Shown here piece after piece: positions 28,784 to 57,354 of a DNA stretch of 64,000 nucleotides (within the stretch, counting starts at the first letter, position 1; every line of letters starts with the position of its first letter). Source of the stretch: Escherichia coli (GTDB lineage: Bacteria > Pseudomonadota > Gammaproteobacteria > Enterobacterales > Enterobacteriaceae). The stretch lies in assembly GCF_041886205.1 (NCBI RefSeq), contig NZ_CP169029.1. One strand, written 5' to 3'. The notes under the pieces were generated by a model. That model did no database searches. It was not told where the DNA came from and was given only the letters and a program-made list of their open reading frames with translations. A program made the translations under genes and the position numbers.

Positions 28784-31700
28784 GTGCGCCTGATTATCAC
28801 TTTTCTGATGGCCTGGTGCCTCAGTTGGGGGGCGTACGCCGCGACGGCCCCCGATAGCAAACAAATCACTCAGGAACTGGAGCAGGCAAAAGCGGCGAAA
28901 CCCGCACAGCCGGAAGTCGTAGAGGCGCTCCAGTCTGCCTTAAATGCGCTTGAGGAACGAAAAGGTTCCCTTGAGCGCATCAAACAATATCAGCAAGTTA
29001 TCGATAATTATCCGAAACTCTCCGCTACTCTGCGCGCACAATTAAACAACATGCGTGACGAGCCGCGCAGCGTGTCGCCGGGAATGTCTACCGACGCGCT
29101 GAATCAGGAAATTCTCCAGGTCAGCAGCCAGTTGCTGGATAAAAGCCGTCAGGCCCAGCAAGAGCAGGAGCGCGCCCGCGAGATTGCCGATTCGCTGAAT
29201 CAACTGCCGCAACAGCAAACCGACGCCCGCCGTCAGTTAAATGAGATCGAGCGCCGCCTGGGAACGCTTACCGGCAATACTCCGCTCAATCAGGCACAAA
29301 ATTTCGCGTTGCAGTCTGACTCCGCACGCCTGAAAGCGCTCGTTGATGAACTGGAACTGGCGCAGCTGTCTGCCAATAACCGTCAGGAATTAGCGCGCTT
29401 ACGCTCAGAGCTGGCGGAAAAAGAGAGCCAGCAACTGGATGCGTATTTGCAGGCCTTACGTAATCAGTTGAACAGCCAACGTCAGCTTGAGGCGGAGCGG
29501 GCGCTGGAAAGTACCGAATTGCTGGCAGAAAACAGCGCCGATTTGCCGAAAGACATCGTCGCGCAATTCAAAATTAACCGCGAACTATCGGCGGCACTGA
29601 ATCAACAGGCGCAGCGGATGGATCTCGTTGCCTCGCAACAGCGCCAGGCCACCAGCCAGACGTTACAGGTTCGGCAGGCGCTGAATACGCTGCGTGAACA
29701 GTCGCAATGGCTGGGATCGTCCAACCTGCTCGGCGAAGCGTTGCGGGCGCAGGTGGCACGGCTGCCGGAAATGCCGAAACCACAACAGCTTGATACCGAA
29801 ATGGCGCAGTTGCGTGTGCAACGGTTACGTTATGAGGATCTGCTTAATAAACAGCCGCTGCTACGGCAAATTCATCAGGCCGACGGTCAGCCGCTGACCG
29901 CCGAGCAAAACCGTATTCTGGAAGCACAACTACGCACTCAGCGTGAGTTGCTGAACTCATTGTTGCAGGGTGGCGACACGCTACTATTGGAACTGACCAA
30001 GCTGAAAGTCTCCAACGGGCAACTGGAGGATGCGCTGAAAGAGGTGAACGAAGCAACGCACCGCTATCTGTTCTGGACCTCTGACGTGCGCCCGATGACC
30101 ATCGCCTGGCCGCTGGAAATCGCCCAGGATCTGCGTCGTCTCATTTCGCTGGACACCTTCAGTCAGTTGGGCAAAGCCAGTGTGATGATGCTGACCAGCA
30201 AAGAGACAATTTTGCCGCTGTTTGGCGCGTTGATTCTGGTCGGTTGCAGTATTTACTCGCGCCGCTATTTCACCCGTTTTCTTGAACGTTCGGCGGCGAA
30301 AGTCGGCAAAGTGACTCAGGATCACTTCTGGCTGACGTTGCGCACTCTTTTCTGGTCGATTCTCGTCGCGTCACCGCTGCCGGTGCTGTGGATGACGCTG
30401 GGTTACGGCTTGCGCGAGGCGTGGCCTTATCCGCTGGCGGTCGCGATTGGCGATGGCGTAACGGCCACCGTGCCGCTGCTGTGGGTAGTGATGATTTGCG
30501 CCACCTTTGCCCGCCCGAACGGCTTGTTTATCGCTCATTTTGGCTGGCCGCGCGAACGTGTTTCCCGTGGGATGCGCTACTACCTGATGAGCATCGGGCT
30601 TATTGTGCCGCTGATTATGGCGCTGATGATGTTCGATAACCTCGACGACCGTGAATTCTCCGGTTCGCTGGGACGGCTTTGCTTTATCCTCATTTGCGGT
30701 GCGCTGGCGGTGGTCACCCTCAGCCTGAAAAAGGCCGGGATCCCACTGTATCTCAACAAAGAGGGCAGCGGCGACAACATTACCAACCATATGCTGTGGA
30801 ACATGATGATTGGCGCGCCGTTGGTTGCCATTCTGGCGTCGGCTGTGGGTTATCTGGCAACGGCACAGGCGCTGTTAGCGAGGCTTGAAACCTCGGTTGC
30901 CATCTGGTTCCTGCTACTGGTGGTTTATCACGTTATCCGCCGCTGGATGCTGATCCAGCGCCGCAGGCTGGCGTTTGACCGGGCGAAGCATCGCCGGGCA
31001 GAGATGTTAGCGCAACGTGCGCGTGGCGAAGAGGAAGCGCATCATCACAGTAGCCCGGAAGGAGCAATTGAAGTCGATGAAAGCGAAGTCGATCTCGATG
31101 CCATCAGTGCGCAATCCTTGCGGCTGGTGCGCTCAATTTTGATGTTGATCGCCCTGCTTTCGGTCATTGTGCTGTGGTCAGAAATCCATTCCGCTTTCGG
31201 CTTCCTCGAAAATATTTCGTTGTGGGATGTCACTTCCACGGTACAGGGCGTGGAAAGTCTGGAGCCGATTACCCTCGGTGCGGTGCTGATTGCCATTCTG
31301 GTATTTATCATCACCACGCAGCTGGTGCGCAACCTGCCCGCGCTGCTGGAACTGGCGATTTTGCAGCACCTGGATTTAACGCCGGGTACGGGCTACGCCA
31401 TCACCACCATCACCAAATATCTGCTGATGCTGATTGGCGGGCTGGTCGGCTTCTCAATGATTGGTATTGAGTGGTCGAAATTGCAGTGGCTGGTTGCCGC
31501 GCTCGGTGTTGGTCTCGGTTTTGGTTTGCAGGAAATTTTCGCCAACTTTATCTCTGGCCTGATCATCCTGTTCGAAAAACCGATTCGCATTGGCGATACG
31601 GTAACGATCCGCGATCTTACTGGTAGCGTGACGAAAATTAATACCCGCGCAACCACCATCAGCGACTGGGACCGTAAAGAGATAATCGTGCCGAACAAGG

Positions 31701-32107
31701 CGTTTATTACCGAGCAGTTTATCAACTGGTCGCTCTCTGACTCGGTCACGCGCGTGGTGTTGACGATTCCGGCCCCTGCCGATGCCAACAGTGAAGAAGT
31801 GACGGAAATCCTGCTCACCGCAGCGCGTCGCTGCTCGCTGGTGATCGACAACCCGGCACCGGAAGTCTTCCTGGTGGATCTGCAACAGGGGATTCAGATT
31901 TTCGAGCTGCGTATTTACGCCGCTGAGATGGGTCACCGTATGCCGCTACGCCATGAGATCCACCAGCTAATTCTGGCAGGCTTCCATGCCCACGGTATCG
32001 ATATGCCATTCCCGCCCTTCCAGATGCGTCTGGAAAGCCTGAATGGTAAACAAACGGGGAGAACATTAACTTCTGCGGGCAAAGGTCGTCAGGCGGGAAG
32101 TTTGTAA
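28784..32107 (+). CDS. mscM: miniconductance mechanosensitive channel MscM
   Basis: 1107 aa ORF: signal peptide, long Gln-rich coiled-coil periplasmic domain, multi-TM region and MscS-like C-terminal domain. Confidence 0.9.
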   Translation: MRLIITFLMAWCLSWGAYAATAPDSKQITQELEQAKAAKPAQPEVVEALQSALNALEERKGSLERIKQYQQVIDNYPKLSATLRAQLNNMRDEPRSVSPGMSTDALNQEILQVSSQLLDKSRQAQQEQERAREIADSLNQLPQQQTDARRQLNEIERRLGTLTGNTPLNQAQNFALQSDSARLKALVDELELAQLSANNRQELARLRSELAEKESQQLDAYLQALRNQLNSQRQLEAERALESTELLAENSADLPKDIVAQFKINRELSAALNQQAQRMDLVASQQRQATSQTLQVRQALNTLREQSQWLGSSNLLGEALRAQVARLPEMPKPQQLDTEMAQLRVQRLRYEDLLNKQPLLRQIHQADGQPLTAEQNRILEAQLRTQRELLNSLLQGGDTLLLELTKLKVSNGQLEDALKEVNEATHRYLFWTSDVRPMTIAWPLEIAQDLRRLISLDTFSQLGKASVMMLTSKETILPLFGALILVGCSIYSRRYFTRFLERSAAKVGKVTQDHFWLTLRTLFWSILVASPLPVLWMTLGYGLREAWPYPLAVAIGDGVTATVPLLWVVMICATFARPNGLFIAHFGWPRERVSRGMRYYLMSIGLIVPLIMALMMFDNLDDREFSGSLGRLCFILICGALAVVTLSLKKAGIPLYLNKEGSGDNITNHMLWNMMIGAPLVAILASAVGYLATAQALLARLETSVAIWFLLLVVYHVIRRWMLIQRRRLAFDRAKHRRAEMLAQRARGEEEAHHHSSPEGAIEVDESEVDLDAISAQSLRLVRSILMLIALLSVIVLWSEIHSAFGFLENISLWDVTSTVQGVESLEPITLGAVLIAILVFIITTQLVRNLPALLELAILQHLDLTPGTGYAITTITKYLLMLIGGLVGFSMIGIEWSKLQWLVAALGVGLGFGLQEIFANFISGLIILFEKPIRIGDTVTIRDLTGSVTKINTRATTISDWDRKEIIVPNKAFITEQFINWSLSDSVTRVVLTIPAPADANSEEVTEILLTAARRCSLVIDNPAPEVFLVDLQQGIQIFELRIYAAEMGHRMPLRHEIHQLILAGFHAHGIDMPFPPFQMRLESLNGKQTGRTLTSAGKGRQAGSL

Positions 32108-32257
32108 TGCATGAAGCTGCCAAATGATGTCAACGTGGCTCATTTAGCAGCTTAACATCATCTTCAGTTATCACCGGCCCTGGAGAGTATCATCCATACG
32201 CATTACTTCCAGACAACTCATCGCCGGAGAGACGATGAGTTGCAGGATTTCATATGA

Positions 32258-33760
32258 TCAGTCGAGAGCTAACTCAGGTTTGTTCGCCATGCGACTGCAA
32301 TAGTTCTGGTAAATCGCCATCGCTAACAGCGAGAAGAAGACAGGGCCGCCAATCATCCACAATGTGCTGTCCCAGTCTCCGGCTTCAACCACAGGTTGAA
32401 TGATGGTGAAGACGTTCGCAAATGTCACCACCAGTACGACAACCACTGTTGCGATCATTGCCGACATACGCGTTTTGAAAATCACAAACGGTCTGTCGAG
32501 ATCCTGACGTGCTTTAAAGAATGGGAAAGCCAGCGCGAGGAACAGGTAAGGAAGCGTCATAGACACGTTCGCCATCAGCGTCAGTTTGTTAAAGAACGCC
32601 GATGCGGTGCCACCGCCAAACGAAACCAGCAGGATGAAGACAGTAACCAACCCGCACTGCATCCACATGGCGATAGAAGGCATACCCATCGTATTCAGGC
32701 GCGTCATCGGTTCCGGCCACAATGCTTTCGGCGTTCCCTGGATGATGGCTTTCAGCGGTGAATAGCAAAGCGTAAAGAACGCACCGGTATAAGCGAGGAA
32801 CATCGAAAGCCCGGTAATACGCGCAAACCATACGCCCAGCGACAATGACGCTTCTGGTGACAAATGCAGTGCGTTACCCAGCGTCACCCCGAGGCTCTTC
32901 ATCAGCACATAGGTAATATTGCCGAGGTTAACGGAACCATTACTTAATACCTGCTGCCAGTTTGTGCTGACGCCCCATAAAAATATTGCCAGCGAATAAC
33001 CGATTGAAATAACAATAGCGGCAAAAACAATACCTTTGGCAAAGTTCTTTTCTGGATTTTCCGTTTTATCGACCAGACCACCAACCGCTTCAATTCCGCC
33101 ATAGGCAAAAATGGCAAATACCACAAACGATAGCATTGCCAGACCGGACTGATAACCTGGGTTCGGTGATGCAAGGAAATTAATATCCTGCGCGAAATGC
33201 CCACCATTTAATAACAAAATAGTAATGCTTACTAACAGCAATACTAAGTTCAGACACATTACTGCAATACCGCCCACCGCAGTAATGCGGGCAATTTTAT
33301 TAATCCCCTTTGAAGCAACGACGGTGACCAGAATCATCCATGCCACTGCCAGCAGACCAACCACCTGCGTAGGCTCCAGTCCGGCAATACGCCAGTGCTG
33401 GGTCATGTCGCTACCATAGAGGAATGTTGAGAACGGTACCCAAACTTTCGCGGAGGTGCTCACCATCCAGATGATATAAGAGGAAAACCACATAAACGTA
33501 CCAATGAAGGCAAAACGTGGTCCGACACTATTATTCATCCAGGAATAGATACCACCTTCTTCTTTGCGATAAGCAGCTCCCATTTCAGCCATCATTAAGG
33601 CGAATGGAATAAAGAATAACAATGCAGAAAATATATAAAAGGGAATCGCACTATAACCCATTAAGTAATAAGCCGATGGGCTATTGGCAAATCCAAATAC
33701 GGAAGTAAAGATCATCAATATGAGTCCTATCAGACTCATCTTTTTTATCGTGTGAGGCAT
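32258..33760 (-). CDS. yjeM: APC-family amino acid/polyamine transporter YjeM
   Basis: Track ORF 514 aa trimmed to MPHTIKKMSL start (500 aa). Confidence 0.85.
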   Translation of the reverse strand: MPHTIKKMSLIGLILMIFTSVFGFANSPSAYYLMGYSAIPFYIFSALLFFIPFALMMAEMGAAYRKEEGGIYSWMNNSVGPRFAFIGTFMWFSSYIIWMVSTSAKVWVPFSTFLYGSDMTQHWRIAGLEPTQVVGLLAVAWMILVTVVASKGINKIARITAVGGIAVMCLNLVLLLVSITILLLNGGHFAQDINFLASPNPGYQSGLAMLSFVVFAIFAYGGIEAVGGLVDKTENPEKNFAKGIVFAAIVISIGYSLAIFLWGVSTNWQQVLSNGSVNLGNITYVLMKSLGVTLGNALHLSPEASLSLGVWFARITGLSMFLAYTGAFFTLCYSPLKAIIQGTPKALWPEPMTRLNTMGMPSIAMWMQCGLVTVFILLVSFGGGTASAFFNKLTLMANVSMTLPYLFLALAFPFFKARQDLDRPFVIFKTRMSAMIATVVVVLVVTFANVFTIIQPVVEAGDWDSTLWMIGGPVFFSLLAMAIYQNYCSRMANKPELALD

Positions 33761-54968: not shown

Positions 54969-55044
54969 GCCCGGATAGCTCAGTCGGTAGAGCAGGGGAT
55001 TGAAAATCCCCGTGTCCTTGGTTCGATTCCGAGTCCGGGCACCA
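54969..55044 (+). tRNA. pheU: tRNA-Phe (GAA)
   Basis: 76 nt exact match to E. coli tRNA-Phe (gcccggatagctcagtcggtagagcaggggattgaaaatcccc...cacca); located after yjdC as pheU is in E. coli. Confidence 0.95.
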
Positions 55045-55241
55045 AATTCATATCAACGGACCTCCACGGAGGTCCGTTTTTCGTTTCAGAACGCCACAAT
55101 TTAAGCGTTCTACCTACAAATCAATTCTACCGAACTCAACCAGATTCCCCCCACATCAACCCCATTGTGTGGGTATAATTGCGGGCATACCCCAGTTCGA
55201 CAGAATTTGTACCCTCTTTAACGCATTCAGAAGGCTATACT

Positions 55242-56504
55242 ATGGCACTGACTGACGCAAAAATCCGGGCTGCAAAGCCCACTGACAAGGCTTATAAACT
55301 CACTGACGGGGCTGGCATGTTCCTACTGGTTCATCCTAATGGTTCCCGTTACTGGCGTCTCCGTTATCGTATTCTGGGTAAGGAGAAGACTCTGGCACTT
55401 GGTGTGTATCCAGAAGTTTCTCTCTCCGAAGCTCGTACAAAACGGGATGAGGCCCGAAAACTGATTTCGGAGGGGATTGACCCTTGCGAACTGAAAAGAG
55501 CTAAAAAAGTAGTCCCTGATTTACAACTCTCTTTTGAACATATTGCACGACGCTGGCATGCCAGTAATAAACAATGGGCACAATCACACAGCGATAAAGT
55601 ACTCAAAAGCCTCGAGACACACGTTTTCCCCTTTATCGGCAACCGGGATATCACAACACTCAGTACCCCGGACCTGCTTATCCCTGTTCGTGCTGCAGAA
55701 GCTAAACAAATTTATGAAATCGCCAGTCGTCTGCAGCAAAGAATATCTGCTGTAATGCGTTATGCCGTACAGTCTGGCATCATCAGATATAACCCGGCTC
55801 TGGATATGGCTGGTGCATTGACCACGGTAAAACGCCAGCATCGCCCTGCACTGGATCTTTCACGCCTGCCTGAACTTCTGTCGCGTATTGACGGTTATAA
55901 AGGCCAGCCTGTCACCCGACTGGCAGTTATGCTGAATTTACTGGTTTTTATTCGTTCCAGTGAACTCAGATACGCCCGCTGGTCTGAAATTGATATTGAC
56001 AATGCCATGTGGACTATTCCAGCCGAACGCGAACCTCTGCCTGGCGTAAAATTCTCACACCGGGGCTCCAAGATGCGAACACCACATCTTGTGCCACTCA
56101 GCAAACAGGCTGTAGCCATACTGGCAGAACTACAGACATGGGCTGGTGAAAATGGTCTGATCTTTACGGGAGCACATGACCCGCGTAAACCAATCAGTGA
56201 AAATACTGTAAATAAAGCCCTGAGGGTGATGGGGTATGACACAACCCAGGATGTCTGTGGCCATGGATTCCGGGCGATGGCGTGCAGTGCATTGATTGAA
56301 TCAGGTTTGTGGTCCCGCGATGCTGTGGAACGTCAGATGAGCCATCAGGAGCGTAATGGTGTACGTGCTGCGTATATCCATAAAGCAGAACATCTGGAAG
56401 AACGGCGACTGATGTTGCAATGGTGGGCCGATTTTCTGGATGCGAACCGGGAGAAGGGTATCAGTCCGTTTGAATATGCAAAAATTAACAATCCATTAAA
56501 ATAG
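55242..56504 (+). CDS. P4-type tyrosine integrase (tRNA-associated genomic-island integrase)
   Basis: 420 aa ORF starting MALTDAKIRAAKP, 198 nt downstream of tRNA-Phe; C-terminal catalytic region with HGFRAMACS (H-x-x-R) and nucleophile Tyr in RAAYIHK; appears full length. Confidence 0.85.
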   Translation: MALTDAKIRAAKPTDKAYKLTDGAGMFLLVHPNGSRYWRLRYRILGKEKTLALGVYPEVSLSEARTKRDEARKLISEGIDPCELKRAKKVVPDLQLSFEHIARRWHASNKQWAQSHSDKVLKSLETHVFPFIGNRDITTLSTPDLLIPVRAAEAKQIYEIASRLQQRISAVMRYAVQSGIIRYNPALDMAGALTTVKRQHRPALDLSRLPELLSRIDGYKGQPVTRLAVMLNLLVFIRSSELRYARWSEIDIDNAMWTIPAEREPLPGVKFSHRGSKMRTPHLVPLSKQAVAILAELQTWAGENGLIFTGAHDPRKPISENTVNKALRVMGYDTTQDVCGHGFRAMACSALIESGLWSRDAVERQMSHQERNGVRAAYIHKAEHLEERRLMLQWWADFLDANREKGISPFEYAKINNPLK

Positions 56505-56590
56505 TAAGCAGTCCGGGCAATCAGCCCGGACTGCTGGTGATGCTGCCAACTTACTGATTTAGTGTATGATGGTGTTTTTGAGGTGCTCCA

Positions 56591-56866
56591 GTGGCTTCTG
56601 TTTCTATCAGCTGTCCCTCCTGTTCAGCTACTGACGGGGTGGTACGTAACGGCAAAAGCACCGCCGGACATCAGCGCTATCTCTGCTCTCACTGCCGTAA
56701 AACATGGCAACTGCAGTTCACTTACACCGCTTCTCAACCCGGTACGCACCAGAAAATCATTGATATGGCCATGAATGGCGTTGGATGCCGGGCAACTGCC
56801 CGCATTATGGGCGTTGGCCTCAACACGATTTTACGTCACTTAAAAAACTCAGGCCGCAGTCGGTAA
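56591..56866 (+). CDS. insA: IS1 protein InsA
   Basis: 91 aa [43 protein letters not shown]. Confidence 0.95.
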
Positions 56867-57288
56867 CCTCGCGCATACAGCCGGGCAGTGACGTCATCGT
56901 CTGCGCGGAAATGGACGAACAGTGGGGCTATGTCGGGGCTAAATCGCGCCAGCGCTGGCTGTTTTACGCGTATGACAGGCTCCGGAAGACGGTTGTTGCG
57001 CACGTATTCGGTGAACGCACTATGGCGACGCTGGAGCGTCTTCTGGGCCTGCTGTCGGCCTTTGAGGTCGTGGTATGGATGACGGATGGCTGGCCGCTTT
57101 ATGAATCACGCCTGAAGGGAGAACTGCACGTTATCAGCAAGCGATATACGCAGCGCATTGAGCGGCATAACCTGAATCTGAGGCAGCATCTGGCAAGGCT
57201 GGGCAGGAAGTCACTGTCGTTCTCAAAATCGGTGGAGCTGCATGACAAAGTTATCGGGCATTATCTGAACATAAAACACTATCAATAA
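56785..57288 (+). CDS. insB: IS1 InsB frame (expressed as InsAB' transposase by -1 frameshift)
   Basis: 167 aa ORF overlapping insA in the -1 frame, ending ...[19 protein letters not shown]. Confidence 0.9.
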
Positions 57289-57354
57289 GTTGGAGTCATT
57301 ACCCGCTTTGCTTTAGCGAGAACTGGTCTTTTATTCGCACTCAGGAGTACATGT

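Follow-up and report, generated by a model that had tools for sequence, protein, structure and literature searches.

The 150-nt mscM-yjeM spacer of an Escherichia coli strain is very probably a scar left by one old deletion of yjeO and most of yjeN

Comparison of K-12 with O157:H7 by Perna et al. and by Hayashi et al., both in 2001, is said to have defined strain-specific 'K-islands'. Terminators between convergent E. coli genes were reportedly the subject of SEnd-seq work by Ju, Li and Liu in 2019. Known immunity proteins of the Tgi/Tsi3 type are lipoproteins or soluble proteins of the periplasm. Orphan immunity genes that persist after loss or displacement of their effectors have been described in T6SS islands, in the Pantoea hcp island (PMC9796082) and in Vibrio cholerae arrays (PMC5361080). 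The locus analyzed here resembles a K-island in that a short K-12 segment is missing from O157:H7 and many other strains while the flanks are conserved. Unlike a K-island, however, yjeN-yjeO is neither K-12-specific nor a mobile insertion but an ancestral Escherichia/Salmonella segment, in all likelihood lost by deletion, and the empty state of the mscM-yjeM site is the plurality allele. The absence of yjeN-yjeO is real but ordinary, a common polymorphism of two uncharacterised accessory genes that is already known and visible in thousands of annotated genomes. Our analysis adds to this only the probable direction of change (loss, once and long ago) and the anatomy of the scar, a clean small example in which structured 3'-end elements of both neighbours are kept while the stub between them decays.

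The window is a stretch of 64,000 nt of E. coli DNA in which mscM and yjeM converge. The features of the locus, with the parts of the spacer labelled as we read them, are as follows.

28784-32107, plus strand: mscM, 1107 aa, from the ORF list; stop codon TAA at 32105-32107.
32108-32257: convergent mscM-yjeM spacer, exactly 150 nt, the putative deletion scar.
32114-32153: mscM-proximal hairpin, arms 32114-32127 and 32140-32153, loop 32128-32139, from folding and alignment.
32154-32160: putative deletion junction zone, with an (A/T)TCA motif at both ends.
32158-32197, minus strand: yjeN stub, ATG at 32197-32195 plus ~13 codons, from alignments and BLAST.
32198-32212, minus strand: remnant of the yjeN 5' untranslated leader, from alignments.
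32213-32243: yjeM-proximal hairpin, arms 32213-32225 and 32231-32243, loop 32226-32230.
32258-33760, minus strand: yjeM, 500 aa; stop codon TGA, read 'tca' at 32258-32260.

Both flanking genes are intact, the products matching the NCBIfam equivalogs NF008180 (MscM, 2200 bits) and NF011775 (YjeM, 862 bits) over their full length. An earlier note on this DNA had described the two genes as convergent and 150 nt apart with no ORF between them, and the gene ends agree with this, as does an ORF search that found no ORF of at least 20 aa wholly inside 32108-32257. The same note placed yjeN and yjeO between the two genes on the K-12 map and named direct adjacency of mscM and yjeM there as what would refute it. 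The placement was correct: the MG1655 annotation reads yjeM (b4156) > yjeN (b4157) > yjeO (b4158) > < mscM (b4159), with the yjeM and mscM stop codons 705 nt apart. Alignment with the K-12 interval and the ORF search likewise support the statement that this strain is without yjeN-yjeO. The missing DNA amounts to ~0.58 kb, from the yjeO stop codon to about codon 14 of yjeN. We consider it very likely that the spacer arose by one old deletion of this length, whose scar retained hairpins and a yjeN stub. An ancestor with yjeM-yjeN-yjeO would have lost all of yjeO and yjeN beyond its first ~13 codons. The scar left behind would comprise the ancestral hairpin 3' of mscM/yjeO, of a type still present in E. 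albertii, then the frameshifted yjeN start stub with its leader, and finally the hairpin 3' of yjeM.

The hairpin next to yjeM contains the 9-bp palindrome described previously (aactcatcg at 32215-32223, cgatgagtt at 32233-32241), and its stem is longer than was noted, with 10 perfect pairs (32214-32223 with 32233-32242) and 13 pairs as minus-strand RNA. It lies 16 nt past the yjeM stop codon. Folding of the minus strand gave a predicted dG of -23.7 kcal/mol (z -6.7), against -18.5 (z -5.3) for the plus strand, and none of 200 shuffles was equally stable. In the intact locus this hairpin sits between yjeM and yjeN, and each of the 28 loci examined, drawn from several genera, has a strong hairpin 3' of yjeM, in some cases a REP-like one. 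The 51 nt that carry the window hairpin (32207-32257) show 100% identity with M172-1 and L005, two islet-bearing alleles from which the adjoining stub is far more diverged. Between the window and K-12, all 13 pairs are kept through four double (compensatory) and three single changes, in a test that had only three distinct hairpin sequences and in which 20-25 of 500 shuffles reached the same level. The yjeM 3' end and the hairpin downstream of it occur as two sharply different alleles, E. albertii having the window type. When window 32258-32290 was compared with the K-12 allele (L001 7310-7393), using tblastn of aa 1-500 and translations, the last ten residues of YjeM read …CSRMANKPELALD (…MANKPELALD) in the window and …CSRVAKNPQWAVE (…VAKNPQWAVE) in K-12.

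A second hairpin, absent from the earlier note, lies 6 nt past the mscM stop codon and has a 14-pair stem (dG -19.3 on the plus and -19.7 on the minus strand, z about -3). By alignment, it is homologous to the hairpin between mscM and yjeO of E. albertii, GAAGCTGCC...GGCAGCTTC. The outer stem, GAAGCTGC / GCAGCTT, is common to the two; the inner stems differ with pairing kept, and the window loop is enlarged. The left end of the window spacer aligned locally with the E. albertii sequence directly past the mscM stop codon (z 4.0, 1 of 200 shuffles), and its leftmost ~32-35 nt had no match in K-12-type islets, only in E. albertii. The hairpin was invariant in all seven empty alleles sampled.

Each hairpin is a stable, G+C-containing stem-loop shortly past a stop codon, as expected of an intrinsic terminator. 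Terminators between convergent E. coli genes (bioRxiv 10.1101/2022.10.23.513370) are likewise stable stem-loops, the ones here being 6 and 16 nt past the stops, but the stems in the window are without flanking U- or A-tracts and form two hairpins, not one that is shared. No U-tract (at least 5 T in 8 nt) lies directly 3' of the stem on either strand of either hairpin, the tails being UCUGGAAG (right hairpin, minus strand), CAGGAUUU (right hairpin, plus strand) and AACAUCAU (left hairpin, plus strand), and a terminator scan of 31900-32500 returned no site on either strand. The canonical features of the bidirectional terminator suggested previously for the palindrome are thus missing and, lacking U-tracts, the hairpins do not qualify as canonical intrinsic terminators. 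In K-12, an assembled transcript covers yjeM-yjeN-yjeO, suggesting read-through of the yjeM hairpin (PMC4168707). The REP/BIME stabilisers of mRNA 3' ends are similarly extragenic palindromes right past a stop codon, and REP-like GCCGGAT... palindromes fill the equivalent post-yjeM position in Citrobacter and Salmonella. Unlike multicopy REP elements, the spacer itself carries no GCCGGATG-type consensus, and its hairpins are single-copy, the spacer matching a median of one place per genome. Judging from their position, stability and conservation, the hairpins most likely define the mRNA 3' ends of mscM and yjeM, or stabilise and protect them.

The spacer might instead be a functional small RNA or regulatory element, going beyond 3'-end hairpins and selected after the deletion, which we regard as highly unlikely. 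As a whole, either strand of it folds better than shuffled sequence (z -3.4 and -4.05), and in both stems a C.A mismatch of the plus strand is replaced by a G.U pair in minus-strand RNA. Yet the Rfam scan of 31800-32600 gave no match at E ≤ 1, the promoter scan found no promoter-like site in the spacer, and the variable sites of empty alleles cluster in the central stub, as they would in neutral DNA between inherited hairpins. The one weak promoter-like site in that scan lies within yjeM.

Between the two hairpins lies a decayed 5' stub of yjeN. This stub, which had also escaped the earlier note, aligned collinearly (32158-32198) with the yjeN 5' end of K-12, M172-1, L005 and E. albertii (local alignments, z 5.8-8.9, 0 of 200 shuffles), and BLAST with the spacer alone matched annotated yjeN at 84.5% identity. 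The yjeN-similar stretch is at the yjeM-proximal end of the interval, as in a pseudogene remnant, and its frame is broken by a 1-nt deletion that leads to a stop after eight codons. It differs by ~20-30% from every sampled yjeN allele, so that either its progenitor was divergent and is unsampled or the stub has decayed neutrally for a long time. The (A/T)TCA motif, read from the alignments, occurs both around the yjeO stop codon and at yjeN codon ~14. The deletion was likely mediated by microhomology at this short motif; the breakpoint is ambiguous within 32147-32160, and we infer its exact position to lie in the shared bases. It is conceivable that positions 32147-32153 stem from yjeN codons 16-20 and not from an arm of the old hairpin.

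An E. coli progenitor would combine an E. albertii-type left hairpin with an intact islet, and no true E. coli in the collection did so. The sole three matches, NZ_CP025747.1 (ML35), NZ_CP144930.1 and NZ_CP144926.1, are labelled E. coli in RefSeq and are 99.6-99.7% identical to the E. albertii islet. ML35, the one whose flanks were examined, is 99.4-99.6% identical to E. albertii and ~90% to E. coli in those flanks. From these identities, all three records are probably mislabelled E. albertii.

We surveyed the locus in 5426 complete E. coli genomes, as had been proposed, calling the scar where the spacer matched with at least 80% coverage and at least 95% identity. The states found were as follows.

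Window-type spacer (scar), including O157:H7: 2394 of 5426 (44%).
Islet DNA present: 3030 of 5426 (56%).
Islet DNA with yjeN and yjeO both present: 2153 of 5426 (40%).
Islet DNA partial, mostly yjeO only: 877 of 5426 (16%).
~237-aa gene, yjeO-like gene, IS630 remnant and yjeO fragment: 45 of 5426 (0.8%).

Together, the scar and islet classes account for 5424 of the 5426 genomes. The 877 partials include at least some of the 45 genomes of the fifth configuration, SX48 having come to light as a partial match. No other single state of the locus is as common in E. coli as the scar. The name 'K-12 islet' given to the segment earlier is right about its presence in K-12, but the specificity to K-12 that it implies does not hold, as the islet DNA in more than half of these genomes makes clear. 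The sampled O157:H7 genomes share the 150-nt scar. Seven empty alleles from diverse strains, O157:H7 included, had an identical junction with one to three differences, mostly in the stub, which argues for one deletion event. A very unlikely alternative is that the empty state arose many times across lineages through independent deletions. The locus is admittedly deletion-prone, a different deletion having taken yjeN alone in ~16% of genomes, and the partners of yjeO homologues were independently disrupted in three other genera. However, all 2394 empty alleles match the 150-nt spacer at the thresholds given above, and the seven sampled ones, from diverse hosts and serotypes, share the stub frameshift and the enlarged hairpin loop along with the junction.

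In the yjeO-only state, a separate deletion runs from upstream of the yjeN start codon to near the yjeN 3' end (ECA64, L003 1351-1449). It differs from the scar deletion, so yjeN was lost at least twice independently. The fifth configuration (SX48, L094 1272-5247; also L092 and L093) reads mscM> <yjeO-like <237-aa gene <IS630 (frameshifted) <yjeO fragment <yjeM, with an IS3 as well in SX48. In SX48 the ~237-aa product is WP_001061059.1. With GC contents of 40% and 34% the module is AT-rich and was perhaps acquired recently.

Following a single deletion, the scar allele may have passed from lineage to lineage by homologous recombination in addition to being inherited. Identity between the window and K-12 is 99.9-100% at 7-18 kb and 96-99% at 28-36 kb. 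Over window positions 1-55000 the comparison is a mosaic, with 96-98% patches at about 3-7, 19-23, 28-33, 39-41, 42-43 and 47-48 kb, indicating recombination imports in an otherwise K-12-like background. That the scar is on a locally divergent stretch of an otherwise K-12-like chromosome suggests that it was spread in this way.

The site is occupied in related lineages. E. albertii (L006) has the order mscM> <yjeO <yjeN <yjeM <epmA, and SCPM-O-B-8794 (L005), the GTDB 'E. coli' representative, has mscM> <yjeO <yjeN <yjeM. The latter is only ~93.5% identical to the window and, on this identity, looks like a cryptic Escherichia clade. Salmonella enterica carries yjeM>yjeN> <mscM, without yjeO, at the same site (L089 4993-5515); its yjeN is flanked on each side by REP-like GCCGGAT palindromes. 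The YjeN family was found in Escherichia and Salmonella only. The yjeN-yjeO segment of K-12 contains no integrase or transposase and has no tRNA target, flanking direct repeats or atypical composition, GC being 50.2% in yjeN and 47.9% in yjeO against 47-56% in the neighbours. The least probable reading, in which the 150-nt spacer is original and yjeN-yjeO was inserted later toward K-12 and its relatives, can draw on an empty site at deeper time (mscM and epmA are directly adjacent in more distant Enterobacterales, and in many Citrobacter mscM> is followed at once by <yjeM), but it is largely refuted by the yjeN start stub, and both the occupied exact site in E. albertii, the cryptic clade and Salmonella and the lack of integrase, repeats or atypical GC in the islet speak against it. 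The choice between ancestral absence and deletion, which the earlier note left open, thus falls to a derived deletion on the strength of the stub, the E. albertii-homologous hairpin and the occupied outgroups.

The lost genes have received little annotation. yjeN-yjeO is listed as an operon, and yjeO is induced 2.6-fold by sigma-E overexpression (PMC2731931); DUF2645, the YjeO family, is mentioned in no paper of the literature searched. YjeO is a three-helix inner-membrane protein with a conserved acidic loop (residues 25-56), periplasmic by the positive-inside rule. In Citrobacter, Enterobacter, Kosakonia, Pseudocitrobacter and others, the yjeO homologue beside mscM is translationally coupled to a ~237-aa gene, whose family is widespread in Enterobacterales and annotated only as hypothetical. 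Searches of Pfam, NCBIfam and PADLOC assigned no family to YjeN or to the ~237-aa partner, and YjeN had no BLASTP similarity to the partner, which rules yjeN out as a remnant of that gene.

Sequence-profile searches of the PDB with partner alignments gave only noise. An AF2 model of the partner built from 40 sequences reached a pLDDT of 88 (a 7-sequence model with pLDDT 44 was discarded), and all of its Foldseek matches were goose-type lysozymes or lytic transglycosylases, a toxin-type fold for the gene upstream of DUF2645. In each of the nine mscM-locus genomes examined, the DUF2645 gene lay immediately downstream of a partner gene that was either intact or decayed. The pair was also found in E. 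coli SX48, in L092/L093 and in five of five distant genera, where it was always intact. In Pectobacterium, Xenorhabdus and Dickeya, hcp adjoins the pair, and in Dickeya hcp>partner>DUF2645 forms a tight operon; hcp does not adjoin it in Yersinia, in Winslowiella, where the pair stands alone, or at the mscM locus. At the mscM locus the partner is broken beside an intact yjeO homologue by a frameshift in C. youngae (L011), a premature stop in E. asburiae (L023) and an internal deletion in Leclercia (L032). The states of the site in E. coli range from the full pair (0.8%) through yjeN with yjeO and yjeO alone to nothing, which on the reading proposed below would be stages of decay.

Taken together, the partner decay, the modelled fold, the hcp linkage in some genera and the YjeO loop suggest that yjeO may be the orphan immunity gene of a Tge-like T6SS effector. 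We propose tentatively, holding it somewhat likelier to be wrong than right, that YjeO (DUF2645) acts as an orphan immunity protein, countering a Tse3-like, Hcp-linked T6SS peptidoglycan glycosidase, and that the mscM-yjeM site is a decaying effector-immunity islet. As with T6SS orphan immunity genes, yjeO homologues often stay intact as the small downstream gene where their partner has decayed or gone, and some E. coli carry the full pair plus an extra DUF2645 fragment. In contrast to T6SS effector islands, the mscM locus lies outside a T6SS cluster, with no hcp, vgrG or PAAR nearby, and the K-12 gene upstream of yjeO is yjeN, unrelated to the effector-like partner. Sequence identity to the Tse3/Tsi3 (Tge/Tgi) glycoside-hydrolase pairs of P. 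aeruginosa is only ~11%, and YjeO, as an inner-membrane protein with an acidic periplasmic loop, is unlike the known Tgi/Tsi3 immunity proteins.

A phage lysis cassette, with the partner as endolysin and YjeO as holin-like membrane protein, was also considered; it is weakened by a search of 50,697 phage records in which no homologue of the partner turned up, and the two 'phage' matches to YjeO were unannotated fragments of 1.6-2 kb. In Yersinia enterocolitica (L103 5001-6013), a lysozyme-like and DUF2645 pair appears to be cargo of a P2-like prophage, placed between its tail and baseplate genes, and such carriage is a possible route of horizontal spread for the pair.

If YjeO is indeed an immunity protein, the strains with an empty site (44% of E. 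coli, including the window strain and O157:H7) would have lost protection against effector-bearing attackers. This proposal is the only part of the analysis with some novelty and could matter more than the main finding. It would give a concrete, testable function to a K-12 y-gene family and to the unannotated ~237-aa family.

Elsewhere in the window (54969-57303 and on to 64000), the tRNA-Phe gene pheU (54969-55044) is followed by a P4-type integrase ORF (55179-56504) and an IS1 transposase (56785-57288). Past IS1, the sequence resumes at K-12 position 4,337,980, just upstream of adiY. The junction between IS1 and adiY was spanned by none of the best 12 genome matches. About 24.5 kb of K-12 backbone is missing (adiA, melR, melAB, yjdF, fumB, dcuB, dcuRS, yjdIJ, ghoST, lysU, dtpC and cadABC), which looks like an IS1-mediated deletion out of a pheU island. 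This ~24.5-kb loss removes the lysine and arginine decarboxylase acid-resistance genes.
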